A stretch of DNA of 27,191 nucleotides from Lysobacterales bacterium (GCA_031406105.1 JANOGQ010000603.1:1-27191); one strand, 5' to 3'. Counted from the first letter of the stretch, positions 1,652 to 14,689 are shown. Numbers and translations are program-made. Notes: generated from the sequence alone by a model not told the origin.

Positions 1652-2002
1652 ATGCGCACTTCCGGCAAAATCACACACTGGAACGCCGAAAAACGCTATG
1701 GCTTCATCACCTCGAACACGGGTGGCGACAATGGCCAAAAAGGCCCAACGCCAGCCAGGGAGCGAAACCCGGATCGACGCGGGCATTGACAACCCAGTGA
1801 TGTGGTACCGGATGCGCTCATACCGCTGGCGCGGCCTCTGCAGGCGCCAGAACCGGAATCTCAATGCGACGGACGCAAGTTCTGCAAGCAGATGACCCGC
1901 TGTGACGAGGCTTATTATTTTCTTCGGAACTGTCCCGGTATTGACATGGATGGCGACGGGGATGGGGTGCCTTGTGAATGGGAAATGTGCGGCCGGCGCT
2001 GA
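1652..2002 (+). pseudogene. Internally deleted cold-shock-domain + Excalibur Ca-binding protein (copy 1)
   Basis: ATG 1652 after AAGGTGG gives MRTSGKITHWNAEKRYGFITS (CSD start), with an in-frame TGA at 1787-1789. The same frame continues to CDGRKFCKQMTRCDEAYYFLRNCPGIDMDGDGDGVPCE (Excalibur DxDxDGxxCE). Confidence 0.85.
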
Positions 2003-2060
2003 GTTGTCCCGATCGTCCAATGTAGGAAACTTTCAAGTAATTCTTCTGAGGGGTCTTCCC

Positions 2061-2092
2061 GCTATTCCCGAATCTACTTCAATGTGCGTTCC
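2061..2092. repeat. R1 repeat copy 1 (truncated before the right hairpin arm)
   Basis: gctattcccgaatctacttcaatgtgcgttcc; part of a 305-bp block 1788-2092 colinear with 6237-6541. Confidence 0.9.
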
Positions 2093-2231
2093 TGATGTTG
2101 CAAGCACCAATTTCCTACAGGAATTACCAAAAATTCCTATAGTGCCAGGTCTTCCCTCGCATTTACTATTCAGCATTCCTGGGTTAGATGGCCCACGCCA
2201 CTTCAACTATCAGTTTGCGCTGGAGTAGATT

Positions 2232-2468
2232 ATGTTTGTGAACACTTTGTCAAAAATGCAGCAGGACCTGCGGTTTTTAACGGCTGCTGAAAGGGAACAG
2301 TTGGCCTTGACGGCTTGGAATAGCCTGGGTGACGGTTCTGATCCCGCGGTCAGTCAGCAGTTGGACCCTGGCGGAATCGAGCTTGCCCTGCAGCGCGATG
2401 GTGAATTGGAGTCGGGCGAAACCAGCGCAATCACCAGTGAGAAATTTCTACAGTGCACTCGTCGCTAA
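2232..2468 (+). CDS. Putative addiction module antitoxin (TIGR02574/Unstab_antitox-like)
   Basis: LTAAEREQLALTAWNSL...IELALQRDGELESGE pattern; lies directly upstream of a ParE-like fragment. Confidence 0.7.
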   Translation: MFVNTLSKMQQDLRFLTAAEREQLALTAWNSLGDGSDPAVSQQLDPGGIELALQRDGELESGETSAITSEKFLQCTRR

Positions 2469-2625
2469 ACCTCTGTTGTATGCGGAGGTAAGAGGGATTC
2501 GACGCGCACTACTGGTTCGCTTTCCTTTTTCGGTGCTCTATCGAGTACGCGAGCCCAACGTGATCAGGGTGTTGGCATTGCGCCACCACAAGCGGAAGAA
2601 TGTTTTAGCTGCCGGTCGCAAGTAG
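2461..2625 (+). pseudogene. C-terminal half of a RelE/ParE-family toxin; N-terminus missing
   Basis: PLLYAEVRGIRRALLVRFPFSVLYRVREPNVIRVLALRHHKRK matches the ParE C-terminal RRxLLxRFPY/xVxAxxHxxR pattern; no N-terminal half or start seen. Confidence 0.75.
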
Positions 2626-2626
2626 G

Positions 2627-2682
2627 TCGAATCGGGTGAATTTCGACTTCGGGTTGATAACGGTTAGGCACAAACTGGGAGC
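2627..2682. repeat. Dispersed repeat D, copy 1
   Basis: gtgaatttcgacttcgggttgataacggttaggcacaaactgggagc aligns without gaps to 7616-7671. Confidence 0.85.
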
Positions 2683-2790
2683 AGTTTCACAACGCCGATT
2701 TTAAACCCGTCGAATTCGACGGGTTTAAAAAGGCAGGCTGGTTTGAACAGCTTCACCCTCACGCCGAAACAGTGGATAGAGACAACCGCG
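2676..2790 (+). pseudogene. KilA-N domain protein internal fragment, frameshifted
   Basis: WEQFHNADFKPVEFDGFK, a +1 shift in the A-run 2727-2731, then QAGLNSFTLTPKQWIETT; typical KilA-N sequence. Confidence 0.8.
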
Positions 2791-2824
2791 TAAGCACGCA
2801 CCTGGAGCAGCAATGAGACCCTTG

Positions 2825-2862
2825 AATATACCCAATATGGGCATTAATATACCCAATATGGG
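2825..2862. promoter_or_regulatory. Tandem 17-bp direct repeat AATATACCCAATATGGG (21-bp period); likely autoregulatory operator
   Basis: Copies at 2825-2841 and 2846-2862, each with a near-palindromic CCCAATATGGG core overlapping the candidate ATGs at 2837 and 2858. Confidence 0.65.
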
Positions 2863-3484
2863 TAGAAAAGCTGTTGGCGATATTCGTAATCAACCGATCA
2901 CTATGGTCGATGCTCTGTTTTCCAGGACACAGCAACGTGTGCTGGCATTGCTATTTGGTCAACCTGAACGAAGTTTCTATGCCACCGAAATCATTATGCT
3001 TTCTGAAGGTGGTTCAGGTGCAATTCAACGCGAGCTATCCAAGCTGTCGAGCAGTGGCTTGATCAACGAAACCCGCATTGGCTCTCAACGGCACTTCCAG
3101 GCGAATGCTGATGCACCGCTTTTTTCCGAGCTGTGTGCGATTGTGCAAAAGACCATTGGATTGGCAGAGCCGCTCAAGACGGCCTTGAAGCCGCTGGTTG
3201 ACCAGATCGAGCTAGCGTTTGTTTTCGGTTCCGTTGCCAAGAAATCGGATTCTGCGACCAGCGATATCGATTTGATGGTGATCAGCGACACATTGGTTTA
3301 TGCGGATGTATTTCTGGCGCTGGAAGAAATGGCTTATAAACTGGGACGGGCCATTCAGCCGACGATCTATTCAAAAGAGGAACTGGCACACCGCCTTGAG
3401 TCCGATAATGCGTTTGTAAGGCGGGTTTTGAAGCAGCCGAAGATCTGGATTATTGGGCAAGAAAGTGACCTCCAAACTGCATAA
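2858..3484 (+). CDS. HTH + minimal nucleotidyltransferase (MNT) antitoxin
   Basis: N-terminal wHTH (SGAIQRELSKLSSSGLI); NTase motif FGSVAKKSDSATSDIDL. Start uncertain (2837 or 2858). Confidence 0.85.
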   Translation: MGRKAVGDIRNQPITMVDALFSRTQQRVLALLFGQPERSFYATEIIMLSEGGSGAIQRELSKLSSSGLINETRIGSQRHFQANADAPLFSELCAIVQKTIGLAEPLKTALKPLVDQIELAFVFGSVAKKSDSATSDIDLMVISDTLVYADVFLALEEMAYKLGRAIQPTIYSKEELAHRLESDNAFVRRVLKQPKIWIIGQESDLQTA

Positions 3485-3884
3485 TCTCACTGGCCCGGGA
3501 AAGTCGCTTGTGGCAGAACCCCCCGATCGGGCTGAATTTGTTGGTTTGGTAAAGTCGGCAACCGCGCGCCTTCGTGACGCCGCCAATACTTCCCTTGCCC
3601 TGGAGAGCCGGTTTGACCTGGCCTACAACTCTGCCCATGCTTTTAGCCTGGCCGCTTTGCGCGCGCAGGGGTTCCGTGCGCATAACCGCTATATCGTCTT
3701 CCAGGTATTACCCGAAACCCTGGGTTTGGGGCCAGAAGTGTGGCGCATATTGGCCAAAGCACATGATCTTAGAAATGTGAGTGAATACGAAGGCGATCTG
3801 AATGTGGATGAACGGTTAGTAACCGATCTGGTAACAGCTACCCAGGCAGTGGCGACAGCCGTTGAGAAATTGACCTTACCCTGA
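3465..3884 (+). CDS. HEPN-like partner (putative toxin) of MNT
   Basis: Overlaps MNT stop by 20 nt with GTG 3465; RFDLAYNSAH...AHDLRNVSEYEG (Rx4Y HEPN-like motif). Confidence 0.75.
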   Translation: MTSKLHNLTGPGKSLVAEPPDRAEFVGLVKSATARLRDAANTSLALESRFDLAYNSAHAFSLAALRAQGFRAHNRYIVFQVLPETLGLGPEVWRILAKAHDLRNVSEYEGDLNVDERLVTDLVTATQAVATAVEKLTLP

Positions 3885-3888
3885 CACA

Positions 3889-3904
3889 CGCTCAGCTGAA
3901 ACGT
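3889..3904. repeat. R2 palindrome copy 1 (degenerate)
   Basis: cgctcagctgaaacgt, starting 5 nt after the HEPN stop. Confidence 0.65.
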
Positions 3905-4040
3905 GAATGCTCTTTTTCTATTCCGCTGCTTTTCTTGATCCAGCGCTCGTTCCAACTGGCAATCCTGCCTTTGCAACGGTCAACAGCCTCTGTGGAAAAC
4001 TGCCCAGGGCACCGTCGCCACCACTGATTGTTCGGCGCGA

Positions 4041-4757
4041 TCAGACAGCTTCGCGGCTCTCAACTGCTCGTCGAACTGTATCCAGATTGATGCTGGAATC
4101 GTAACCGGAACCCAGCTTTGAGAATTCGAAGGTCAAAGACAGTCCTTTGGATTTCCCGAAAGCAGCAATACCGGAATTGAGCGTAGAACTGAAGTCGGTT
4201 AAATCAAACGCTGCGTAGTAGCTTGTCGGCGCAAGCACACAAAGCGTGATATTGGTTGCTTGCAGTACCGGTTGAGTTTCGAGCTTGTATCCAAGTTGCT
4301 CCCGGTGGGTTTTGGACCAGGTAAACAACAAGCCGTACCTCAGAATTTCAATGGCAGCAAAAAGCGGATTGTCGCTGCCGACTTTCAGTTCGATCAATGA
4401 ATAATGAGTTGGGCTTTGTCGATACACCAGGTCAACAGAAGCCCTTTTATCTTTAGCAGCGCTTACCACGCCGGACGCTGTGGGCATCTGATTCGACCAA
4501 CTTTCCCCACAACTGAGCACGATGGCACGTTCAAGCTGAAGCTCGGGGCTTGTGTTGTTTGTTGACAGATCCAGGTGGCGTTTCCATCTCCAGTTTTCCC
4601 TCGAAGGGTTTGAGTAGGCGCTTGCACCTCGGCCCGACCAGTTGTTGGAGATTTGTTGATAGGCCTTGTCGAGAAACTCATGCGTTCCTGTGATGGGGGT
4701 GCTTCTGCGTGTCAGTTCATTCGCGGCCGAGCGATGTTTGGCAATCGCTGGCGGAGC
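4041..4757 (-). pseudogene. 5'-truncated PD-(D/E)xK-like nuclease protein
   Basis: Frame stays open upstream of the listed GTG (4520) to a TAG at 4760-4758 with no ATG/GTG/TTG start: KHRSAANEL...NPSRENWRWK...PELQLERAI...NQMPTASG...VDLVY...LIELK..SDNPLFAAIEILRYG. Confidence 0.6.
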
Positions 4758-4789
4758 CTATCGAACCAGGTCGCAGTCACACATCCGCG

Positions 4790-5045
4790 GTCCGGTTACG
4801 TCGTGGAAAGCCAGGAGGCGGCTTTGTGGGCGTTCACTCGTACGAACAATTTTGCGGATGCGATTCTGCTGGCCGCGAATCTTGGTGAGGACGCCGACAC
4901 GACGGCCGCGGTGTGTGGCCAGGTTGCCGGGGCCTGGTACGGCGAGTCGGGCATCCCGCCCCATTGGCTGGAATGTCTGGCGCTTCGCCCGGACATTGCC
5001 ACCCTGGCCGATCGGCTCGGCATGAGTTCCGAAAAGCGCGCTTGA
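4790..5045 (+). pseudogene. C-terminal fragment of ADP-ribosylglycohydrolase (DraG/ARH family)
   Basis: [15 protein letters not shown]...[28 protein letters not shown]; only ~85 aa of a ~300-aa family. Start coordinate approximate. Confidence 0.85.
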
Positions 5046-5072
5046 TGGATGGCGACAAATGGGCCTGGCAAT

Positions 5073-5212
5073 AAAGGGGCCTAAAAAAGGGGCCTAAAAA
5101 AGGGGCCGGGCACTTTTTCGAATGCGTCAAACTAAATGTATCCGGCCCCTTAAACCAGAAACAGCTCCATTATCCGACAGCAGTCAGCGGTAATTTCCTG
5201 CCCCGGCCCCTT
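5073..5212. repeat. Tandem AAAAAAGGGGCCT (~2.7 copies) plus inverted AAGGGGCCGG/CCGGCCCCTT motifs
   Basis: 13-mer tandem 5073-5107; AAGGGGCCGG 5100-5109 pairs with CCGGCCCCTT 5142-5151; a third CCGGCCCCTT at 5203-5212. Confidence 0.8.
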
Positions 5213-5343
5213 CGGTAATAGGCCAAACTGCTTGTTGTCAGGTTTATCTGGTTCCATCAGGAGTTGAGAAAGCGCTTATCGCCGGCAGCGGGCAACCCGA
5301 ACCGGGTTTGGAACAGCGCATGTTAACCTGACCTTTGAACCAC

Positions 5344-5364
5344 TTGTTCCCATATCGGGAACAA
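5344..5364. promoter_or_regulatory. Palindromic operator upstream of higBA
   Basis: TTGTTCCC-ATATC-GGGAACAA with perfect 8-bp arms, followed by TATCAT (-10-like). Confidence 0.75.
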
Positions 5365-5396
5365 ACTATCATATGAATTATTGCGTGGAGTAAGGG

Positions 5397-5696
5397 GTGA
5401 GAATCATTGCTCTCAAGACCATCCGGGATTTCTGGCAGAAAGCTGCGCATAGAGACAGTGAACAAGCACTTAAATCGTGGTATGCAATTGCACGCAAAGC
5501 CGGCTGGGCAAGTCCGCAAGACGTCAAGGTGCAGTTTGGTCATGCCAGCATCATTGGAGGTGGGCGAGTCGTGTTTAACATAGCAGGCAACAAGTATCGC
5601 CTGGTGGTGAAATTCAACTATGCCTATCGTCTGGGCTACGTCCGGTTTATTGGTACGCACTCCGAATACGATGCAATTGATATGGAGACGATCTAA
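5397..5696 (+). CDS. higB: HigB mRNA interferase toxin (E. coli YgjN type)
   Basis: MRIIALKTIRDFW...WASPQDVK..F..AS...VFNIAGNKYRLVV...FIGTHSEYD. Confidence 0.93.
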   Translation: MRIIALKTIRDFWQKAAHRDSEQALKSWYAIARKAGWASPQDVKVQFGHASIIGGGRVVFNIAGNKYRLVVKFNYAYRLGYVRFIGTHSEYDAIDMETI

Positions 5697-6061
5697 TGAA
5701 AATCAGGCCGATCCGAACCAAAACCGACTATGCTGCCGCCATGAAGCGCATCGATCAGGTTTTCGACGCCAGGCCAGGCACTCCCCAGGGCGATGAACTC
5801 GAGGTGCTAACGCTGTTGGTTGAAAACTATGAACGGCAGCACTATCCGGTCGAGGCGCCTGACCCGGTGGAATTTATAAAGAATGTCATGGAGTTCATGG
5901 GGCTGGGCCAGAACGAACTGGCGGTGGTACTGAATTCACGTTCCCGGGCCTCGGAAATACTCAGCCGCAGGCGCCCGCTGACCTTGTGGCAGATCCGCAA
6001 AATTTCAGCCGCCTGGGGGTTGCCGGCTGATTCTCTTATTTCTGAATATGAAGTTGCCTAA
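5696..6061 (+). CDS. higA: HigA HTH antitoxin
   Basis: IRPIRTKTDYAAAMKRID...DELEVLTLLVENYE...SRSRASEILSRRRPLT; stop/start overlap with higB. Confidence 0.92.
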   Translation: MKIRPIRTKTDYAAAMKRIDQVFDARPGTPQGDELEVLTLLVENYERQHYPVEAPDPVEFIKNVMEFMGLGQNELAVVLNSRSRASEILSRRRPLTLWQIRKISAAWGLPADSLISEYEVA

Positions 6062-6196
6062 AGTATTGGGGTCAGAGTAAAGGGACAAAGTGAAATTGAG
6101 CAGCGGCGCTCAGTTTCGGAGTTGGTTCACCCATTCCCTGAATATTTCAGTCCTTAGTACAAGCCCTCACCTAAATGTCCAGAATCTCGTTGATCA

Positions 6197-6451
6197 GTGG
6201 GTATCGCCATCGAAGCCCATAGCTACCACAAACTACGACAACCCGGTGATGTGGTACCGGATGCGTTCATACCGCTTGCGCGGCCTCTCCAGGCGCCAGA
6301 ACCGGAATTTCAATGCGACGGGCGCAAGTTCTGCGAGCAGATGACCAGCTGTGACGAGGCTTACTACTTTCTTCGCAACTGTCCCGGCAATGACATGGAT
6401 GGTGACGGGGATGGGGTGCCTTGTGAATGGGAAGTGTGTGGCGGGCGATAA
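6197..6451 (+). pseudogene. 3' part of CSD-Excalibur gene (copy 2)
   Basis: GIAIEAHSYHKLRQP (possibly the end of a membrane-proximal segment) then CDGRKFCEQMTSCDEAYYFLRNCPGNDMDGDGDGVPCE; no CSD. Confidence 0.75.
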
Positions 6452-6509
6452 GTTGTCCAGATTGGCCAATGTAGGCAACTTTCAAGTAATTCTTCTGAGG
6501 GGTCTTCCC

Positions 6510-6551
6510 GCTATTCCCGAATCTACTTTAATGTGCGTTCCCGCGGAGCGC
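6510..6551. repeat. R1 repeat copy 2
   Basis: gctattcccgaatctactttaatgtgcgttcccgcggagcgc; right arm degenerate. Confidence 0.9.
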
Positions 6552-6758
6552 GGTTGAGCGCTTGGGTTCCGGGCCCTAAACTGAATACCAAGTTGTCTTT
6601 TCAGTTTCTCCGGCTCGGTGATTTCTTACACGTTTAATAGCAAAGCTGCCAACGACTTCGTATCCAAAAGCTCGCACACTATCGTCAATGCCTTGAATGG
6701 CTTTCAGTGAAGAATCCAGGCCGGGCTGTGTGAAGTTTTCATCAATCGGAAAAACACA

Positions 6759-6779
6759 GTTTAACGCTACGCGTTAAAC
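6759..6779. promoter_or_regulatory. Palindromic operator upstream of second higBA
   Basis: GTTTAACGC-TAC-GCGTTAAAC with perfect 9-bp arms, 24 nt before the GTG start. Confidence 0.75.
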
Positions 6780-6802
6780 GTGATACATTATGGCAGAACG
6801 CG

Positions 6803-7081
6803 GTGATCAAGAGTTTTGCAGATAAAGCAACGGCGCAACTCTTCGGTGGGATTTGCCCGCGCCGGTGGCAATCGGTGCGAAAGTCGGCGGAAAGAAAACT
6901 GGCACTACTGGATGCAGCAACTTCGTTGGAGTTTTTGTACGCACCTCCTGGTAATCGATTGGAACTGTTGCAAGGCGACAGGAAAGGGCAACACAGAACT
7001 CGCATCAATGATCAATGGCGTGTGTGTTTTACGTGGAAGCAGGGCAACGCTTTTGATGTATCCATTGTTGACTACCATTGA
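6803..7081 (+). CDS. higB: HigB plasmid-maintenance-system killer toxin
   Basis: MIKSFADKAT..LF...PPGNRLELLQGDRKGQHRTRINDQWRVCFTW...VSIVDYH. Confidence 0.93.
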   Translation: MIKSFADKATAQLFGGICPRRWQSVRKSAERKLALLDAATSLEFLYAPPGNRLELLQGDRKGQHRTRINDQWRVCFTWKQGNAFDVSIVDYH

Positions 7082-7091
7082 GAACAAACTG

Positions 7092-7391
7092 ATGCCAAAG
7101 AACAAAATGCGTCCCATACACCCCGGTGAAATACTCCGGGAAGAGTATCTGCAACCACTAAACCTGACGCCCAATGCACTGGCCATCGCGCTGCGCGTTC
7201 CGGCGCCCCGGATAAACGATATTGTCCTGGAACGGCGAGCCATTACACCCAATACGGCACTGCGACTGGCGCGTTACTTTGGTGGTGACGCGGGAAGCTG
7301 GATGAATCTGCAGGTAACTTATGATTTGAAGCAGGCCGAGCTTGCGGAAGGTAAAGAGATTCGTACCGAAGTAAATCCCAGAGCGGCGTGA
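7092..7391 (+). CDS. higA: HigA addiction module antidote
   Basis: MRPIHPGEILREEYL...RINDIVLERRAITPNTALRLARYFG...WMNLQ..YDL; start set at ATG 7092. Confidence 0.95.
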   Translation: MPKNKMRPIHPGEILREEYLQPLNLTPNALAIALRVPAPRINDIVLERRAITPNTALRLARYFGGDAGSWMNLQVTYDLKQAELAEGKEIRTEVNPRAA

Positions 7392-7548
7392 TCGTTTGGC
7401 CTTGAATCATGGCCAAACCTCACACCAAAGCGTAAACCATCTCCATCGCCAACCCCTCCTCATTCCTTGTCGGCGATTCTGGCAGAGTTGCGATCCTGGG
7501 AACAAAGCTGGCAGTGACCGCGCCTACCATCGCGTCCAGGGTCTTCAA

Positions 7549-7589
7549 GCTATTCTCGAATCTAATTTAATGTGCGTTCCCACCGGAAC
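7549..7589. repeat. R1 repeat copy 3
   Basis: gctattctcgaatctaatttaatgtgcgttcc-cacc-ggaac. Confidence 0.88.
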
Positions 7590-7615
7590 TCCCATGTCAG
7601 AGCGTTTTTCCTATA

Positions 7616-7671
7616 TCGGATCAAGTGGATTTCGACTGCGGGTTGATAACGGCCTGGCACAAACTGGGAGC
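7616..7671. repeat. Dispersed repeat D, copy 2
   Basis: Colinear with 2627-2682. Confidence 0.85.
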
Positions 7672-7692
7672 GCAATCCAACAAGCCCATTCC

Positions 7693-7720
7693 TTGACAAA
7701 GCACTCCAGTGGAGTATCGT
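7693..7720 (+). promoter_or_regulatory. Sigma70-like promoter with operator palindrome
   Basis: TTGACA (7693-7698)-16 nt-TATCGT; ACTCCA-G-TGGAGT (7703-7715) lies between the boxes. Confidence 0.65.
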
Positions 7721-8058
7721 TGATTTCCGTAGCCGAAACCCAGCCTTTTCAACGGAAAGCTGCACAACTGCTCTCCGAGATCGAAAAATCTGAGCTCATC
7801 ACTCATCTTTCGGCGAACCCCAGTGCTGGAGCCCGCATCAAGGGCACAGGTGGAATCAGGAAGCTGAGGTGGTCATATGGCGGTCGAGGGAAAAGTGGTG
7901 GCGTCAGGGTTGTTTACTATTTCCATGACCTGGATATGCCGCTTTTCTTGCTGACTCTATTTGGTAAAAATGAAAAGTCTAACCTGTCGATGGAGGAGAA
8001 AAACACTCTGTCGAAGCTGGTAAGAGAACTTGTGAAGTGTTGGAGCGGGATGCAATGA
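7720..8058 (+). CDS. RelE/HigB-2-family toxin
   Basis: TTG 7720 after GGAG; NPSAGARIKGTGGIRKLRWS..GRGKSGGVRVVYY...LLTLFGKNEKSNL. Confidence 0.9.
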   Translation: MISVAETQPFQRKAAQLLSEIEKSELITHLSANPSAGARIKGTGGIRKLRWSYGGRGKSGGVRVVYYFHDLDMPLFLLTLFGKNEKSNLSMEEKNTLSKLVRELVKCWSGMQ

Positions 8059-8342
8059 GCAAGGCATTTGAAGAAATCAGCGCCGGTCTGGATGATGCCA
8101 TCGCGCACGCCAAAGGCAGGAAGAGCGCAGTTATTGTCCACGAGCCTGAAACTATTGACGTAAAGGCAATCCGCAAAAAAACCGGCATGAGCCAACAGAA
8201 GTTTTGTACGACGTTTGGAATTTCATTGGGCACTTTGCGTCATTGGGAACAGGGGCTGCGTTCGCCACGGGGCCCGGCGAGAGTGCTGCTGAAGGTAGTG
8301 GATCATATTCCGGGTGCCGTTATCCAGGCGATTGGCAAATAG
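8055..8342 (+). CDS. HigA-2-like XRE HTH antitoxin
   Basis: ATGA overlap with toxin; FEEISAGLDDAI...DVKAIRKKTGMSQQKF...TLRHWEQGLRSPRGPARVLL. Confidence 0.92.
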   Translation: MSKAFEEISAGLDDAIAHAKGRKSAVIVHEPETIDVKAIRKKTGMSQQKFCTTFGISLGTLRHWEQGLRSPRGPARVLLKVVDHIPGAVIQAIGK

Positions 8343-8369
8343 CGGATATCACGACATCTGGCGGTGCAT

Positions 8370-8437
8370 TAGCTGGACCTCTGATCACTTTTCCGGGTTC
8401 CTGCACTGTGGCAAAGCGCGCTTCAGCTGAAACGCGC
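8370..8437. repeat. R2 copy 2 with upstream segment E
   Basis: tagctgg..ctctgatcacttttccgggttcctgcactgtggcaaagcgcgcttcagctgaaacgcgc; aligns to 12593-12658. Confidence 0.88.
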
Positions 8438-8571
8438 ATGGTCAAATCCGAATATATAAAGGCAACGAACAGTTTAATTTCCTACAACAGGCACGGTGAA
8501 TTCCTACATCCCCCCTGCAAAGCGTTGGTTAGGCTTCGTGACACACAAGCCAATCCTTCTATGTATCTATT

Positions 8572-8922
8572 ATGGTACACTCCAGCACACCTCACGACCC
8601 AAAACCGGTCCGTTTCTATCGGCAGGACAATGGTGATGAGCCCGTGCGGGAGTGGCTGAAAAGTTTATCGAAGGAGAACAGGGCAAAGATCGGCAGGGAC
8701 ATCATGACATTGCAAGAAGGTTGGCCTATCGGTATGCCGCTGGCGCGAAAGTTAACCGACCGACTTTGGGAAGTACGCTCAAGGCTGAATCGCGAATCGG
8801 CCAGGACCATTTTCACGGTCAAGGACGAAACCATTATTTTGTTGCACGGATTCATCAAGAAGTCGCGCAAAACACCACGGCAGGATTTAATCATCGCGCG
8901 GGAAAGATTGGCGAAATTGTAA
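8572..8922 (+). CDS. RelE/ParE-superfamily Gp49-like (Tad-like) toxin
   Basis: FY...G.EPVREWLKSL...GWPIGMPL.RKL...LWEVRS...LLHGFIKKSRKTP. Confidence 0.9.
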   Translation: MVHSSTPHDPKPVRFYRQDNGDEPVREWLKSLSKENRAKIGRDIMTLQEGWPIGMPLARKLTDRLWEVRSRLNRESARTIFTVKDETIILLHGFIKKSRKTPRQDLIIARERLAKL

Positions 8923-8947
8923 ATTGGGAGATCAGGAAGAACCGATC

Positions 8948-9232
8948 ATGGGAAAGCAGAATATTGGCAGCCGCTTCGATGAGTTTCTCGACGAGGAAGG
9001 TTTACTACAGGATGCCCAGGCGGTGGCGGCCAAGCGCCTTATCGCCCACCAGCTGGCCAAACTGATGGAAGAGCAGTCCCTGACCAAGATGGAACTGGCA
9101 AGGCGCATGCACACCAGCCGGGCGGCGCTTGACCGTTTGCTTGATCCCGAAAATCCCTCGGTAACCTTACAAACCTTGCAAAGCGCGGCAACGGCTGTTG
9201 GTGGGCGGCTACTCATTACGCTGGAGGTTTGA
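8948..9232 (+). CDS. XRE-family HTH antitoxin (Ata-like)
   Basis: IGSRFDEFLDEEG...KMELARRMHTSRAALDRLLDPENPSVTLQTL. Confidence 0.9.
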   Translation: MGKQNIGSRFDEFLDEEGLLQDAQAVAAKRLIAHQLAKLMEEQSLTKMELARRMHTSRAALDRLLDPENPSVTLQTLQSAATAVGGRLLITLEV

Positions 9233-9280
9233 AAATCCCCGCAGCATGGTCTTCTAATCACGACCAAAAGCGCCAGTGAA

Positions 9281-9306
9281 TGGCAAAAAGCGTTTCAGCT
9301 GTAACG
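9281..9306. repeat. R2 copy 3
   Basis: tggcaaaaagcgtttcagctgtaacg; first 21 nt identical to 13351-13371. Confidence 0.88.
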
Positions 9307-9368
9307 TAATTAGTTGCGCAGTTGGCAAACAAAGCAACATCCGCGAAATTCCTCCGAAGGGTCTTCCC

Positions 9369-9530
9369 GCTATCCTCGAATCTACTTTAATGTGCGTTCC
9401 CGCGGGAACGCGGGTGAGCCGTCACGACACCTGGCGCGCTTGAGCACAAACAACACTCTGGCCTGAGGCGCTGCATTTGCCGGAGATTTCCTACGTAAGA
9501 ACAGCGATTCTCCCATTCAGCCGCGCCTTC
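9369..9530. repeat. R1 copy 4 plus segment C
   Basis: R1 with perfect 18-bp palindrome GCGTTCCCGCGGGAACGC (9394-9411); whole block colinear with 11392-11553. Confidence 0.92.
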
Positions 9531-9592
9531 TGATTCCCCCAGAATTGCCATGTTGACACTTGCTATGTACACAGAACGTGCATACACTCAAA

Positions 9593-9874
9593 ATGAAAAC
9601 CGAATGGGATCCAGCAAAAGCAGCTTCAAATCTGCGAAAGCATGGCATCGACTTTTCTGATGCCGCTGTCGCATTGGAAGACAGAAACGCACTGACGATT
9701 GATGATTCAGGGCATGCAGAGCAGCGGTTCAAGACTCTGGCTCTTGGTCCACAGCTCGCAGTGTTGATGATCGTGCACATCGCGCCGAACGAAGACACCG
9801 TCCGGATTGTTTTAGCGCGACGAGCAGACCGGAAAGAAACCAGCTATTACTTCGATGGAATAAGCCATGAGTGA
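9593..9874 (+). CDS. brnT: BrnT toxin (DUF497)
   Basis: EWDPAKAASNLRKHGIDFSDA...EQRF...VRIVLARRADRKE; start set at ATG 9593; TTGCTA-17-TACACT upstream. Confidence 0.92.
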   Translation: MKTEWDPAKAASNLRKHGIDFSDAAVALEDRNALTIDDSGHAEQRFKTLALGPQLAVLMIVHIAPNEDTVRIVLARRADRKETSYYFDGISHE

Positions 9875-10124
9875 AGACTTCAGTAAAGGAAAACGCGGCA
9901 CCGTTGTTCCCCCCGACCCGAACAAGTTGCGGATCACCATCCGCCTGGATGGCGACATCATCGCGTATTTCAAGCGCAAGGTGCATGAAGCGGGTGGCGG
10001 CAATTACCAGACGCTGATGAATCAGGCCCTGCGCGAATTAATTGATTCGGACTCGAAGCCATTGGAAGAGCGCTTGCGCAAGGTCATCCGCGAAGAGTTG
10101 CGCCAGGTTTCTGAAGCCCGCTAA
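9867..10124 (+). CDS. brnA: BrnA antitoxin (RHH)
   Basis: KLRITIRLDGDIIAYFK...GGNYQTLMNQALRE; overlaps brnT stop. Confidence 0.92.
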   Translation: MSEDFSKGKRGTVVPPDPNKLRITIRLDGDIIAYFKRKVHEAGGGNYQTLMNQALRELIDSDSKPLEERLRKVIREELRQVSEAR

Positions 10125-10126
10125 GA

Positions 10127-10462
10127 TCAGGAAACAGCGCTTCCAAGAAAGTCACCGACGTCGTCAAGTACACTGCCTTGACCGAGCACTTCCACACCGA
10201 CAATCTGCCTGTCAGTAAGGGGTGTTTTCAGAATTACCAGTTAATTCGAAATTTCCTGGCAGCCATTCAACACGGAAAGTCCCATATTCTGTTATGTGAA
10301 GAAAGGCAGGCCGACCTGGTGCGCAGCTACCTGGTAACGGTTTCGTGCATGCGTGATTCTGCACATCGAAAGCGCTGCCGGGTGATTTTTTGGCAGAATA
10401 TCCAGCGAGTATGTGGAGCGGACCTGGTGCTGTTTCTCGAATCCAAGTATGGAATTCGATAG
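10127..10462 (+). pseudogene. C-terminal fragment of a putative restriction-endonuclease-like (PD-(D/E)xK) protein
   Basis: YQLIRNFLAA...HILLCEERQADL...RCRVIFWQ...FLESKYGI resembles C-termini of such proteins as I recall them; no catalytic N-terminal part or RBS seen. Confidence 0.45.
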
Positions 10463-10503
10463 AACCTGGACGGAAAAATAGGGTAACCGGCCAGAAACCA
10501 TCC

Positions 10504-10545
10504 CTATCCTCGAATCTACCTTAATGTGCGTTTCTGCGGAAACGC
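10504..10545. repeat. R1 copy 5
   Basis: ctatcctcgaatctaccttaatgtGCGTTTC-tgcg-GAAACGC; compensatory C-G to T-A change in the stem. Confidence 0.9.
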
Positions 10546-10747
10546 CCAGTTGCGATGGAAATTGCCAAGGTGAATCTCTGATTATTGGAACCCCGCTTTC
10601 CCCGGCGAACTTCTCACCGAATTGAATACCACTGGGGGGCGGTCTCTTTTCCTACGGAACCAGAGGCGTTCTGCCCAGTCAAGCCACGCCCTTTGGCAGG
10701 TAGGCTTGCGAAGGATGATCACCAAAACCTCCAGCATTGAATCCCTA

Positions 10748-10762
10748 TACCCCAATGGGGTA
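10748..10762. promoter_or_regulatory. Palindromic operator
   Basis: TACCCCA-A-TGGGGTA between TTGAAT and TAGTAT, 8 nt before the GTG start. Confidence 0.7.
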
Positions 10763-10770
10763 GTATTGGC

Positions 10771-11094
10771 GTGATATTCATCGAGACGTCTGTTTTTACC
10801 CGCCAGATCAAGAACCTGATTTCTGATGAAACTTACCTGGAGTTACAGGAATGGATCGCGGAGTCTCCAGGCCGGGGGAAGGTAATCCCGGGAAGTGCTG
10901 GTTGTAGGAAACTCCGCTGGAAGATAGCTGGTAAGGGAAAACGGGGTGGCATTCGGGTGATCTACTATTGGCTCAAGGAAAGCAATCAGATTTTTGTGCT
11001 GATCGCTTACGCCAAGGCAGACACGGATGATTTAACCCAGCAGCAGATCAGGCTGTTGCGGGATCTGGTCAAGAACGAGTTCCGGAGTCGGTGA
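10771..11094 (+). CDS. RelE/HigB-2-family toxin
   Basis: MIFIETSVFTRQI...PGRGKVIPGSAGCRKLRW...GKRGGIRVIYYW...YAKADTDDLT. Confidence 0.92.
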   Translation: MIFIETSVFTRQIKNLISDETYLELQEWIAESPGRGKVIPGSAGCRKLRWKIAGKGKRGGIRVIYYWLKESNQIFVLIAYAKADTDDLTQQQIRLLRDLVKNEFRSR

Positions 11095-11095
11095 A

Positions 11096-11389
11096 ATGAA
11101 AGAACAACTCTTTGATGACCTGCTGACTTCAGTCAAGGAGGCAGGTCAGATTCTTCGCGGCAGGTTGCCGCCGACCAGGGTCTTTACGATGAAAGCCCTG
11201 GATGTTCGGCGGCTTCGACACAACCTCAAACTGAGCCAGGGTGAGTTTGCTGCACTGGTGCATGTGAGTGTAAAAACCCTGAGAAACTGGGAGCAAGGTG
11301 CACGCGCGCCAGGTGGCGCTGCTGCTGCACTCCTGACCGCGATCCGGAATGATCCGAAGAATGTAATCTCTGCGCTCAATTCAAGTTAA
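11096..11389 (+). CDS. HigA-2/NadS-like HTH antitoxin
   Basis: LFDDLLTSVKEA...DVRRLRHNLKLSQGEFAAL..VSVKTLRNWEQG.R.P.GAA.ALL.AI.NDP. Confidence 0.92.
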   Translation: MKEQLFDDLLTSVKEAGQILRGRLPPTRVFTMKALDVRRLRHNLKLSQGEFAALVHVSVKTLRNWEQGARAPGGAAAALLTAIRNDPKNVISALNSS

Positions 11390-11391
11390 TC

Positions 11392-11553
11392 GCTATCCTC
11401 GAATCTACTTTAATGTACGTTCCTGCGGGAACTCGGGTTAGCCGACACAACACCGGGCGCGCTTGAGCACAAACAACACTCCAGCCTAAGTCGGGGCATT
11501 TGCCGGAGATTTCCTACGTAAGAACAGCGAATCTCCCATTCCGCGCGCCCTCT
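11392..11553. repeat. R1 copy 6 plus segment C
   Basis: Begins 2 nt after the antitoxin stop; gttcc-tgcg-ggaac at 11419-11432; colinear with 9369-9530. Confidence 0.92.
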
Positions 11554-11563
11554 AATCCTCCGA

Positions 11564-11618
11564 CCATTGGCGGAGAAGATTCGCACGGTAATCCGCGAGG
11601 AATTGCGCCAGGTTTCTG
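11564..11618 (+). pseudogene. Remnant 3' end of a second brnA
   Basis: PLAEKIRTVIREELRQVS vs PLEERLRKVIREELRQVS (10059-10113); 55-nt ungapped alignment. Confidence 0.8.
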
Positions 11619-11677
11619 GACAGCGCACAGGTCAGGCAGCAACTCGGGCTGACCCGAAAAAGCAAGAGAGGGCGCTT

Positions 11678-12190
11678 GTGAAGAATGACGGCCGTTACGA
11701 TATTTCGAAATTGGCGCAAGTCCAATACGAACCAGGTTCAGGCGAGCAGGTGCTCAGGAGTCGGCTTGGTATCAAATCGCCACAGGAAATGGATGACAAC
11801 GAAACCCGCGCCCTGAAAAGGGTGATGGTAGGGCTGGTGAGCAAATAGGATGCGACATATCGCTTCACCTCGGCCGATATCTGCGAGATTCACAGGATTT
11901 GGCTCGGTGAGATTTATGAGTGGGCGGGTGAGTTCCGACAGGTGAATGTGAGTAAGGGTGAGTTTCTTTTTGCAGCCGCTGCTCGTATTCCTGGCCTTGT
12001 GGCGAAATTTGAAAGCGAAGTACTGGCCCGATATACGCCGTGAAATCTGAGAGACCGTGCAGCGGTTGCCCGTGCGCTGGCAGTGGCACATGAGGAGTTG
12101 GTTCTTATCCATCCGTTTCTGGATGGCAACGGTCGGGTAGCTCGTGTAATTTCGATACTTATGGCTTTACAGGCGGGTCTGCCCGCCTTT
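11678..12190 (+). pseudogene. Fic/DOC family protein with two nonsense codons and truncated C-terminus
   Basis: GTG 11678 after GAGAGGG; single frame YEPGSGEQVLRSRLGI...K*(11846)DATYRF...IYEWAGEFRQVNVSK...TP*(12041)...HPFLDGNGRVAR. Confidence 0.9.
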
Positions 12191-12313
12191 CCTAAAAGTA
12201 ATATCGCTATCCCGCAACTTTACCCGCAATTTTGCGGGATTTCGTCTGGTGTGCGATCGCGGTAGATGTATTGTATCGGCCTTCAAAGCATCCGGAACCT
12301 TAAATACCCATGG

Positions 12314-12576
12314 GAAGCCCAACGCAAGCCAGGGAGCGAATCCCGGATCGACGCGGGCATTGACAACCCGCTGATGGGGTAACGGATGCGATCATGCCGC
12401 TTGCGCGGCCTCTCCAGGCGCCAGAACCCGAATTTCAATGCCACGGATGTAAGTTCTGCAAGCAGATGACCAGCTGTGACGAGGCTTGTTACTTTCTTCG
12501 GAACTGCCCCGGCAAAGACATGGATGGTGACCGGGATGGGGTGCCTTGTGAATGGGAAGTGTGTGGCGGGCGCTGA
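12314..12576 (+). pseudogene. Linker + Excalibur remnant of CSD-Excalibur gene (copy 3)
   Basis: Colinear with 1743-2002, with the same GGGCATT|GACAACCC junction; CPGKDMDGDRDGVPCE. Confidence 0.8.
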
Positions 12577-12592
12577 GTTGTGACCATGGGGG

Positions 12593-12658
12593 TAGCTGGG
12601 CTTCTGATCACTTTTCCGGATTCCTGAACTTTGGCAATGGGCGTTACAGCTGAAACGC
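12593..12658. repeat. R2 copy 4 with segment E
   Basis: ...tggcaatgggcgttacagctgaaacgc; aligns to 8370-8437. Confidence 0.88.
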
Positions 12659-12724
12659 TCCAGGTAGCTTTTTACTGACAAAAGTTTGGGCTTTTCCCAT
12701 AGCCGCCTGAACTGACAGATGAGA

Positions 12725-12744
12725 TTGTATCCACATGGGTACAA
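12725..12744. promoter_or_regulatory. Imperfect palindromic operator
   Basis: TTGTATCCA-CA-TGGGTACAA, 7 nt before ATG 12752. Confidence 0.6.
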
Positions 12745-12751
12745 AGTTATC

Positions 12752-13051
12752 ATGATCACAGTTCTTGAGACCGAGGTTTTCGAGACCTGGCTCAGACGGC
12801 TCAAGGATTCGCGCGGTAAGGCCAGGATTATTCATCGCATTCGTGCGCTCGAACGGGGCCATTTTGGTGATTCCCGATCTGTTGGCCCCGGAGTTGTGGA
12901 ATTGAGAATTCACGTTGGGCCTGGTTATCGCGTGTATCTCAAGCGCGAACGGGAGTCGATCTGCACTTTGTTGTGTGGTGGTGGCAAAAGCAGCCAGCAA
13001 AAAGACATCCAGCGTGCAATTGAATTGGCAAAACATCTGGAGCTCTACTGA
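12752..13051 (+). CDS. RelE/ParE-family addiction module killer (TIGR02683-like)
   Basis: FETWLRRLKD...RI..L..GHFGDSRSVG.GV.ELRIHVGPGYRVY...LLCGGGKSSQQKDI. Confidence 0.93.
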   Translation: MITVLETEVFETWLRRLKDSRGKARIIHRIRALERGHFGDSRSVGPGVVELRIHVGPGYRVYLKRERESICTLLCGGGKSSQQKDIQRAIELAKHLELY

Positions 13052-13054
13052 ATC

Positions 13055-13372
13055 ATGTCCAAAACGAAATCGATTTCCGCAAAGCCTTTTGAGGCCAGCG
13101 ATTACCTGGACAACGACGAAGTCATCGCGGAATATCTGGCAGCGGCGCTGGAGGACGATGATCCGGATGCTTTCCTGGTCGCGGTGCGCGATGTGGCGAA
13201 AGCGCGGGGTATGGGCGATGTGGCTGCGAAATCCGGCCTGGGCCGGGAGAGTTTGTACAAGGCGCTGCGGCCCGGCGCACTACCGCGCTTCGTAACGGTT
13301 CGCAGCGTGTTGGCAGCGCTCGGCATTCGGCTCGAGCTGGTTCCGTTTGATGGCAAAAAGCGTTTCAGCTGA
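13055..13372 (+). CDS. Addiction module antidote (TIGR02684/HI1420-like HTH)
   Basis: FEASDYLDNDEVIAEYL...VAKARGM..VA.KSGLGRESLYKAL...PRF.TV..VL.ALG; last codons and stop lie inside R2. Confidence 0.93.
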   Translation: MSKTKSISAKPFEASDYLDNDEVIAEYLAAALEDDDPDAFLVAVRDVAKARGMGDVAAKSGLGRESLYKALRPGALPRFVTVRSVLAALGIRLELVPFDGKKRFS

Positions 13373-13378
13373 AACATT
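13351..13378. repeat. R2 copy 5 (perfect GTTTCAGCTGAAAC at 13362-13375)
   Basis: tggcaaaaagcgtttcagctgaaacatt. Confidence 0.9.
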
Positions 13379-13385
13379 CTTTTAG

Positions 13386-13532
13386 GGAAGCTCTGATTAA
13401 TTCGTCCCTGAAGCATCAGAGCACGCAAAACAAAAAATGTCATTTTTTTTGCTTCATTTTCAATGATTTACAATCATCGAAAATGGCGGCACATCCTTGT
13501 ACCGCGGCAACTCTGAATAAATCAGAGTTGCC
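13386..13532. mobile_element. Putative IS5-family MITE (~147 bp, non-autonomous)
   Basis: Terminal IRs GGAAGCTCTGATTAATTC / (rc) GGCAACTCTGATTTATTC match 15/18; flanks TTAG and CTAA (YTAR); internal hairpins; no ORF. Confidence 0.55.
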
Positions 13533-13569
13533 CTAATTATTTGTAGGAGTTTAGCCCGATATTTGAAGA

Positions 13570-13587
13570 AATGTTTCAGCTGAAACG
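13570..13587. repeat. R2 copy 6 (perfect core at 13573-13586)
   Basis: AATGTTTCAGCTGAAACG is the exact reverse complement of 13361-13378. Confidence 0.88.
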
Positions 13588-13669
13588 TACTTCGAGACGA
13601 ATGGTGGCCAGGTTGAATCTTTCAGAATCCGAGGGAGCTCAGTTCGAAGTGAGAACACACACTCAAGTT

Positions 13670-14689
13670 TCAGATCAGCTGGCTGCTGCGCAACTCATCC
13701 TTCAGATAGGCGTAGTAAATCGGCGCGGCGATAAGGCCGGGGATGCCAAAGGCGGATTCCAGCACCAGCATAGCCAGCAGCATTTCCCAGGCTTTAGCCC
13801 TGATGTGGCTGCCGATGATGCGGGCATTGAGAAAGTATTCCAGTTTGTGAATGATGATGAGGTAAGCCAGGGATGCAACCGCCACCGCCAGTGAGTGGCT
13901 GAGGCTTACGGTAAAAATGATGGTATTTGAAAGCAGGTTACCGAGGATGGGTAGCAGTCCCGCCACGAAGGTCAGTACGATCAGGGTTTTGGTAAAGGGC
14001 AGATGGATGCCGAACATCGGCAGGACAAAAACGAGATAAATGGCGGTCAGCAGGGTATTGATGGCCGAAATCCAGACTTGCGCAAAAACCACGCGCCGAA
14101 AGGCATCGGCAAGACGGTGTCCGCGGGCGGCAATGCCCGCCGTCAACGGCGTGCTGGATTGGCTGACCACGGCTGATTCGAGTGAGAGCAGTGCGCCAAT
14201 CACCATGCCGATCAGGATTTGCGCCAGCACCCGGCCCAGCCCGGTGCCTGCCACCTGGAATACGTCCGCATTGGTGCGCAACCACTCGACCAGGGCAATG
14301 CGCAACTGCTCGGCATTCGCTGGCATGTTGTCCGTCATCCACCCTGGCATGAGTGCGCGCGATTCTTCGATGATCTCCGCCATCCGCGTGATCAGGGCCG
14401 GCAAGGTTTCATTGCTTTCACGCAACAAAGAGCTGGTCGACGCAGCCAGAAGTGTGATGAGTGCAATCACGGCCGCAGCAATAATGGACACTGCCACGAG
14501 CCTCGGTCCTTCGCCCCATAGCATGCGGGTGCGAAGCACGGGTGTGAGCAAGTTGACCAGCGAATAAACCAGCAAGCCGGCAATCAAGGCCGGCAGCAGG
14601 TGCAGATAAAGCAGCAGTAACAGCGCAACCGCGCTCGCTAGCCAGATGATGATGTCTCTGCGGAGATTGTTGTTTGTATCCATGGCCAT
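13670..14689 (-). CDS. AI-2E family (PerM-like) transporter
   Basis: Multi-pass hydrophobic protein; AFRRVVFAQVWISAINT...LLPILGNL...LEYFLNARIIGSHI...FGIPGLIAAPI. Confidence 0.9.
   Translation of the reverse strand: MAMDTNNNLRRDIIIWLASAVALLLLLYLHLLPALIAGLLVYSLVNLLTPVLRTRMLWGEGPRLVAVSIIAAAVIALITLLAASTSSLLRESNETLPALITRMAEIIEESRALMPGWMTDNMPANAEQLRIALVEWLRTNADVFQVAGTGLGRVLAQILIGMVIGALLSLESAVVSQSSTPLTAGIAARGHRLADAFRRVVFAQVWISAINTLLTAIYLVFVLPMFGIHLPFTKTLIVLTFVAGLLPILGNLLSNTIIFTVSLSHSLAVAVASLAYLIIIHKLEYFLNARIIGSHIRAKAWEMLLAMLVLESAFGIPGLIAAPIYYAYLKDELRSSQLI

Follow-up and report, generated by a model that had tools for sequence, protein, structure and literature searches.

The 27,191-nt stretch of Lysobacterales DNA analysed here (the window) corresponds to contig C243 in a metagenome-assembled genome (MAG) of 654 contigs, 90% complete, from an uncultured freshwater-sediment bacterium. 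It carries six copies of R1, a repeat with a 29-nt core followed by a short palindrome. In our judgement, the chances are about even that R1 is the joining site of a cassette array that is not an integron and that its palindrome is a protein site on duplex DNA, not a folded hairpin. Arrays with R1 are integron-like in anatomy: co-oriented 1-kb toxin–antitoxin or defence cassettes meet at a conserved joint, and their neighbours are shuffled. Their site is different, however, and they have no integrase. Integrons are, to our knowledge, the only well-understood collector of small gene cassettes at a dedicated site, and neither the R1 palindrome nor arrays of this kind were found described in the literature searched.

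R1 and the joints of the array

All six co-oriented copies that the original prediction had placed in the window are present at their six sites. Their 29-nt cores follow the pattern CTAT[C/T]C[C/T]CGAATCTA[C/A][C/T]T[C/T]AATGT[G/A]CGTT in one orientation and differ from CTATCCTCGAATCTACTTTAATGTGCGTT by 0–3 mismatches, whereas none of 100 dinucleotide shuffles gave a match. The core is pyrimidine-rich and G-poor in composition. The palindrome that follows has the consensus CGTTCCCGCGGGAACG (GTTCC-CGCG-GGAAC), and its GTTCC/GGAAC arms, right arm included, are kept in more than 90% of R1 copies. The predicted GTTCC-N4-GGAAC sequences at 7576, 9396 and 11419 and GTTTC-TGCG-GAAAC at 10530 were all found; the copy described as degenerate (core at 6511) has a broken right arm, and the one described as cut (core at 2062) ends at its left arm. 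The copies and the array that holds them are as follows.

2062–2092, + strand: R1 copy 1; core at 2062–2090 and left arm, without a right arm; after the end of an Excalibur-domain gene
6511–6552, + strand: R1 copy 2; core at 6511–6539 intact, right arm degenerate (GCGTTCCCGCGGAGCGCG); 62 bits with the covariance model
7550–7591, + strand: R1 copy 3; core at 7550–7578 and GTTCC-CACC-GGAAC; a HigB-like/HTH pair before it and a RelE/HTH pair after it
9370–9411, + strand: R1 copy 4; consensus core at 9370–9398 and the perfect 18-nt palindrome GCGTTCCCGCGGGAACGC at 9394–9411; 79 bits with the covariance model; a Gp49/HTH pair (with the sister palindrome R2 at 9290) on one side and BrnT/BrnA on the other
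10504–10545, + strand: R1 copy 5; core at 10504–10532 and GCGTTTC-TGCG-GAAACGC, the T–A variant; neighbours are a REase-ARP gene fragment and a RelE/HTH pair
11393–11434, + strand: R1 copy 6; core at 11393–11421, 3 nt past the stop codon of an HTH antitoxin gene (11096–11389); directly after it comes a remnant of the 5′ region of the BrnTA cassette
2232–13372, + strand: array of type II toxin–antitoxin and defence modules from Pfam scans, with R1 and R2 between modules; its operons are ParE-like, MNT/HEPN-like, HigB with a partner, HigB-like/HTH, RelE/HTH (twice), Gp49/HTH, BrnT/BrnA and Gp49/HI1420 antidote, and it contains Excalibur, ADP-ribosylglycohydrolase, REase-ARP and Fic gene fragments

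From 13670 onward the genes are ordinary chromosomal ones. R1 lies 3–160 nt past the stop of one operon and 130–230 nt ahead of the start of the next. We compared 57 distinct R1 copies, drawn from this genome, five other MAGs and 19 metagenome contigs of the Joint Genome Institute (JGI). Orientation is uniform within each contig, with a median spacing of 1,082 nt, and the flanks fall into 29 upstream and 28 downstream classes that occur in 50 combinations. At least two downstream partners were seen for 11 of the 13 recurrent upstream classes, and several upstream partners for all ten recurrent downstream classes; in the window's own genome, the joint between the REase fragment and R1 is present twice, each time with a different downstream cassette. 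Public contigs from other sediment samples are identical to the window over exactly 9368–9411, which gives a unit of about 44 nt, and diverge exactly at 9368 and 9411–9415, continuing into other cassettes. Because the flanks change class at the edges of the element, R1 is non-coding.

The two ends of R1 follow their neighbours. From −2 leftwards, positions are linked to the upstream flank (p = 0.0005), and from +37 rightwards, in the right arm GRAACGC, to the downstream flank (p = 0.001–0.009). The right arm thus passes on with the cassette that follows, though it is kept in nearly all 28 downstream classes. Between these zones lies a near-invariant block of 36 nt that is common to all R1 copies and in which such signals are weak and mixed.

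A covariance model built from the 57 copies agrees with the pattern search on 11 full copies in the window's own genome. Five of the 11 lie outside the window, on C232, C252, C388 (two) and C523, making five R1-bearing contigs together with C243. The other MAGs with R1 are three classified as ‘Lysobacterales’, one uncultured gammaproteobacterial genome with long contigs (G001), in which six copies form a single array at 5–13 kb of a 344-kb contig, and one binned as Verrucomicrobiota. In the last, a single R1 copy accompanies a RelE-type cassette on a 2.4-kb contig (L022), reflecting either misbinning or horizontal transfer. Within the order, R1 is present in 4 of 401 sampled genomes; all four congeners lack it, whereas one sister genus has it in three of its five genomes. 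It had no match in the plasmid and phage collections searched.

We also consider, as a serious but unlikely alternative, that R1 is a passive conserved intergenic module (an insulator, a Rho-dependent stop or an operator) whose neighbours are shuffled by homologous recombination or gene conversion over about 40 bp of identity. The Rho-dependent version calls for a core that is rich in pyrimidines and poor in G, with a GC pause hairpin after it, and R1 always sits shortly past the stop of the preceding operon. Additionally, core polymorphisms associate weakly with both sides, no recombinase was seen nearby, and R1-bearing contigs are present among the RNA-library contigs of a metatranscriptome. 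However, the 29 nt are near-invariant across cassettes and genomes, which points to recognition of a specific sequence rather than to composition, and some 40 bp is barely long enough for RecA-mediated exchange, whereas 50 distinct joints were found. R1 fits neither a consensus promoter nor an intrinsic terminator: neither a sigma-70 promoter nor a terminator was called at R1, and with GGAAC taken as the −35 element of an extracytoplasmic function (ECF)-type promoter, CGT is absent at the right spacing by eye. Further, the identity of the palindrome with sites in the DUF222–HNH genes described below would be coincidental. An origin of the TCGAATC string from a tRNA T-arm was also rejected, as the stems are unpaired and the window contains no tRNA.

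The palindrome and its relatives in DUF222–HNH genes

The original prediction held that the terminal hairpin of R1 is conserved by compensatory change. Over seven stem pairs in the 57 copies, 89.6% of the cells are paired, against 89.2% after shuffling of the 3′ letters, and stem pairing is high because both arms are conserved. The sole pair that varies on both sides is C–G in 31 copies, U–A in 4, U–G in 2 and unpaired in 20 of 57 (mostly C·A); double changes occupy 4 cells, compared with 2.3 ± 1.2 in shuffles, and are equalled by 76 of 500 shuffles. For the two symmetric pairs that vary, p is 0.19 and 0.16 by Fisher's test. Compensatory change is thus not borne out: the T–A pair noticed at 10530 is real but gives no evidence of a conserved fold. 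The centres of the palindromes are often hybrid (CGCA in 14 copies and TGCG in 5, with symmetric TGCA in none). If joints unite half-sites of different origin, the arms would fail to co-vary and hybrid centres would be common; the stem would then look conserved, and C·A mismatches would be frequent.

It is therefore the location that stands from the earlier idea of a recombination substrate, as R1 sits exactly where cassettes exchange, and the folded single-stranded DNA (ssDNA) or RNA hairpin that goes unsupported, as covariation is lacking. That R1 nevertheless acts as a folded RNA or ssDNA, be it a processing site, a small RNA or an HUH substrate of the REP/RAYT, IS200 or IS91 type, strikes us as improbable. 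A GC stem of 5–8 bp with a 4-nt loop does form in every R1 fold, every copy is on the coding strand, and RNA-library contigs contain R1. On the other side, 35% of the copies are mismatched at the sole variable pair, DNA folds of 131-nt R1 windows have energies like those of shuffles in 8 of 10 cases, and Rfam gave no hit at gathering thresholds and no relevant match at E ≤ 0.5 over 1900–13700.

Mobile elements with structured ends fare no better. Repetitive extragenic palindromes (REP) and REPINs are, like R1, short extragenic repeats that end in a GC-rich stem, but R1 copies are few (11 in this genome), clustered and all direct, and none flanks the RAYT-like gene of this genome. The only Y1_Tnp (RAYT-like) gene of the genome, at C507:2316–3155, is flanked by inverted copies of a different, 21-nt repeat, GGGGTCAGAGTAAAGGGACAG (55 copies genome-wide), which speaks against the suggested REP-like end with a neighbouring RAYT or IS200 gene. 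A solo copy of this 21-nt repeat lies at 6068–6088 of the window. Of the five R1-bearing genomes searched, two lack genes of the IS91 (Y2) type; together with the separate repeat of the Y1 gene and the lack of covariation, this inconsistent presence speaks against an HUH-type substrate. Tn3-family ends are 38 bp long, of the form GGGG...TAAG; a GGGGTCT start is found in two R1 copies only, and DDE_Tnp_Tn3 is absent from all five R1-bearing genomes examined for it.

For the R1 palindrome, a protein site on duplex DNA that resembles parS is a better reading than a folded hairpin. The parS site is GTTTC-ACGT-GAAAC, and parS and the Noc-binding site (NBS) have the outline xTTyC-N4-GrAAx. The R1 consensus has this 16-bp inverted-repeat form, and all sites of the palindrome family to which R1, R2 and DUF222–HNH genes contribute match the outline. 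R2 is the other repeat at the joints of this array; its palindrome, GCGTTTCAGCTGAAACG, often has TGGCAAAAA just before it, and the antidote gene at 13055–13372 terminates within an R2 copy. In the window it occurs as follows.

8418–8434, strand not specified: R2-type palindrome GCGCTTCAGCTGAAACG, sister of the R1 palindrome
9290–9306, 12641–12657, 13360–13376 and 13571–13587: further R2 copies
3892–3903: R2 half-copy

The R2 palindrome is also dispersed on at least 10 other contigs, partly within DUF222–HNH genes. Genome-wide, CGTTCCCGCGGGAACG occurs 11 times and CGTTTCAGCTGAAACG (the R2 core) 6 times, compared with 0–4 for composition-matched controls.

The R1 covariance model recovers, beyond R1 itself, about ten solo palindromes, several of which lie inside multi-copy genes with Pfam DUF222 and HNH domains, on C425, C617, C229, C645 and C607 of the same genome (loci L050–L053) and in relatives (L056–L075). 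These genes carry parS-like palindromes of 14–18 nt at three homologous in-frame positions, two of which read V-[S/P]-A-[E/G]-T (frame 0) and one R-[F/S]-[S/R]-G-N-V (frame 1). Sites of both the CGTTCCCGCGGGAACG and the CGTTTCAGCTGAAACG type occur within them. Among 22 genes from 8 genomes, the type varies by paralogue, with centres AGCT, CGCG or TGCA, inner arms TC or CC and outer base G or A, and synonymous Ser/Ala codon pairs preserve the symmetry of the palindrome. At site A the arms co-vary, with 112 paired cells against 98.4 ± 3.3 and none of 2,000 shuffles reaching that number, a figure inflated by the relatedness of the paralogues; sites B and C are weaker. The joint palindromes of the window (CGCG in R1 and AGCT in R2) are the two types found in the DUF222–HNH paralogues of its own genome, the one on C425 being of the CGCG type. 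Halves are symmetric inside these genes and mixed at cassette joints.

From the parS- and NBS-like outline we predicted a ParB-like domain in the DUF222–HNH proteins and tested this by structure modelling. In a model of the DUF222 region folded with 19 paralogues (predicted local distance difference test (pLDDT) 83.5), the top 22 PDB matches are all ParB, Noc or Spo0J DNA-binding domains (probability 0.66–1.00), several of them solved on DNA sites, and unrelated matches have a probability of at most 0.15. In a model of the whole protein, residues 55–166 align to ParB-type domains over about 100 residues (Z 6.6–8.3, VIA-align); for the C-terminal part, the alignments are to the HNH domains of IscB and McrA. 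We regard the modelled likeness of the DUF222 N-terminal domain to the ParB/Noc DNA-binding fold as good but not conclusive. The N terminus of the HNH-HIT protein, compared with the DUF222 domain, showed no likeness.

The ParB–parS, Noc–NBS and KorB–OB pairs offer a close parallel in outline to R1 (GTTCC-CGCG-GGAAC) and R2 (GTTTC-AGCT-GAAAC), and the candidate partner of R1, DUF222–HNH, has a predicted ParB/Noc-like DNA-binding fold. The parallel has its limits: the central four bases of R1 and R2 are not those of parS, the sites are at cassette joints and in nuclease genes rather than near the origin, and DUF222–HNH carries an HNH nuclease and, in Pfam scans, lacks the N-terminal (CTPase) domain of ParB proteins.

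DUF222 and HNH domains also define the multi-copy REP13E12/13E12 family of Mycobacterium tuberculosis, which resembles the paralogues described here. Some of these paralogues (L068 and L069, in genome G346) have a LexA-box-like sequence, TACTGTATACTATTATAGTA, at their start, which is the start of the repeated unit. This fits the mycobacterial case, in which 13E12 genes are under LexA control and have been described as insertion elements with phage attachment sites in them (PMC3381160). The present lineage differs in being gammaproteobacterial, and a link of 13E12 to parS-like palindromes or toxin–antitoxin joints was not found in the literature searched.

A third arrangement, R3, measures about 85 nt and occurs as solo copies, four of them in G001 (L077, L079, L080 and L086, at C6:92945, C9:24686, C10:266420 and C11:488159). 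Its order is the palindrome, then CGAGT, then an R1-like core, TCGAATTTACTTTAA (14 of 15 positions identical to R1), and two of the four follow closely on a tRNA (tRNA-Phe and tRNA-Lys). R3 was not found in the window's own genome.

A joining model and known cassette systems

Under the model that we favour, each cassette would be a self-contained toxin–antitoxin or defence operon of about 0.5–1.8 kb. Its first bases, GG[G/A]AACGC, would be the right half of a parS-like palindrome, and at its end would come the R1 core with the left palindrome half, CTATCCTCGAATCTACTTTAATGTGCGTTCC. Joints would arise when DNA is broken at the palindrome or close to it and rejoined, uniting half-sites of different cassettes. 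The palindrome would work as duplex DNA on which a ParB-type DNA-binding domain docks; the best candidate for the docking protein would be the multi-copy DUF222–HNH nuclease of the same genomes, and a nick or cut by it at the palindrome would start the exchange. We infer the protein binding of the R1 palindrome, DUF222–HNH as the protein and exchange driven by cleavage. The palindrome types common to the joints and these genes, and the contrast between symmetric halves in the genes and mixed halves at the joints, count in the model's favour. A broader proposal, which we hold to be doubtful, is that R1 and R2 mark a second, integrase-free cassette system, in which SOS-inducible ParB-like HNH nucleases (DUF222–HNH) would cut parS-like palindromes, half-sites would be joined into chromosomal arrays and the 29-nt core would be an accessory or a guide.

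Several observations weigh against the favoured model. First, perfect palindromes are found in only 9 of the 46 R1 copies with an intact register, so that many copies would be poor sites. Second, polymorphisms within the core give mixed signals, with positions 5, 8 and 30 leaning to the upstream flank and position 14 to the downstream flank (p = 0.002); these signals do not locate the crossover point and leave room for homologous exchange within the block. Third, neither excision products nor cassette-sized deletions were seen among public assembled contigs matched to 6600–12300, which yielded other R1 copies only. Fourth, no recombinase was seen on any R1-bearing contig, including that of G001, in which the head of the array is visible. 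Fifth, DUF222–HNH genes are equally common in relatives without R1 and so do not explain its distribution, and none adjoins an R1 array among the arrays seen. Sixth, the fold matches have modest E-values (0.07–1) and the domain is small and helical, which keeps the ParB assignment short of conclusive. Finally, the model offers no explanation for the 29-nt core, the best-conserved part of R1.

Should the palindrome dock DUF222–HNH, a large unexplained family, including the 13E12 repeats of M. tuberculosis, would gain a testable role, and defence and toxin–antitoxin islands would have a second route of assembly. Even on a modest reading, R1 is a clean marker of cassette exchange in uncultured freshwater-sediment Gammaproteobacteria.

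Integrons are the obvious standard of comparison. Their arrays, including clusters of attC sites lacking an integron-integrase (CALINs), likewise consist of co-oriented, promoter-bearing toxin–antitoxin cassettes of about 1 kb with a conserved site at every joint; in both systems the distal part of the site is inherited with the next cassette, and cassettes are reshuffled between genomes. The integron site, attC, is an imperfect palindrome of 55–140 nt in which R″ (RYYYAAC) and R′ (GTTRRRY) boxes pair, with L″ and L′ inside. R1 lacks the R″/L″/L′/R′ boxes and the long imperfect palindrome, and its conserved part is instead the asymmetric 29-nt core with a short parS-like palindrome. Moreover, no integrase is linked to R1, and where these genomes have true integrons, the attC sites are of the ordinary kind.

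The possibility that R1 is nonetheless an unusual attC, and the array a CALIN or the distal part of an integron served by IntI, is very remote in our estimation. A full IntI is encoded on another contig of the genome, and the size, co-orientation and toxin–antitoxin content of the cassettes are like those of chromosomal integrons. However, cassettes next to IntI in this genome, in G003 and in G004 have classic attC (..TAAC ... GTTAGGC) unlike R1, and G001 carries six R1 copies without an IntI, which also speaks against R1 as a substrate of the integron integrases of this clade, a role allowed for by the original prediction. Regular-expression and fold scans of the window found no attC and no YTAAC...GTTARRY pair. 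The R1 core has no partner arm upstream or downstream: its long-range pairing with 245 nt of either flank was no better than that of shuffled cores. The genuine integron, at C174:1–2625, comprises intI (TIGR02249, 472 bits), an attI region and two or more cassettes that carry attC of the classic type, and is separate from the R1 array.

Xer systems were compared in the same way. In a dif site, a centre of 6 bp is enclosed by two arms of 11 bp, of which the XerD arm, TTATGTTAAAT, is conserved; the dif candidate of the window's own genome, on C13 (AATTCGTATAATGTATATTATGTTAAAA), is unlike R1. On Acinetobacter plasmids, XerC/D sites known as pdif flank toxin–antitoxin and resistance modules. Such modules resemble R1 cassettes in being small toxin–antitoxin units bounded by short sites and exchanged as units, but R1 has no 11-6-11 Xer architecture, is unlike the dif of its own genome and occurs in direct, not alternating, orientation.

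Other features of the arrays

No conserved large gene was found near the arrays; the recurring genes are cassette cargo, namely Fic, KilA-N, HNH-HIT, NERD and cold-shock domain (CSD)–Excalibur. The CSD–Excalibur gene has three to four partial copies in the window, at 1788–2087, 6237–6536 and 12362–12661 and also at 130–177, and is, in other genomes, a frequent R1-bounded cassette (downstream class 9, with nine independent joints). The sequence TTATGTTAAA, which follows some R1 copies, is part of the 5′ region of this cassette. An IS110-family element in the G001 array (G001:C7, L029 9440–10700) lies inside a KilA-N cassette gene and not in R1. On C232, an RVT_1 reverse-transcriptase gene (3330–4631, L054) closely precedes a REase-ARP fragment with an R1 copy, and may be a defence-type reverse-transcriptase cassette from another piece of the array.

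The 5′ regions of several cassettes contain a box of sequence (A)TTTCCTAC, sometimes doubled at a distance of 22 nt, which sits 40–140 nt downstream of R1 or R2 (in the window at 2109–2139, 8476–8506, 9484–9500 and 10646–10660), and may be a shared promoter or operator element. Lastly, motifs of sequence AAAAAGGGGCC are repeated in tandem at 5066–5150 of the window, where a long inverted repeat, GGGGCCGG..CCGGCCCC, is found as well; in other genomes, several R1 copies have related AAAGGGCCGGGCAC strings ahead of them.

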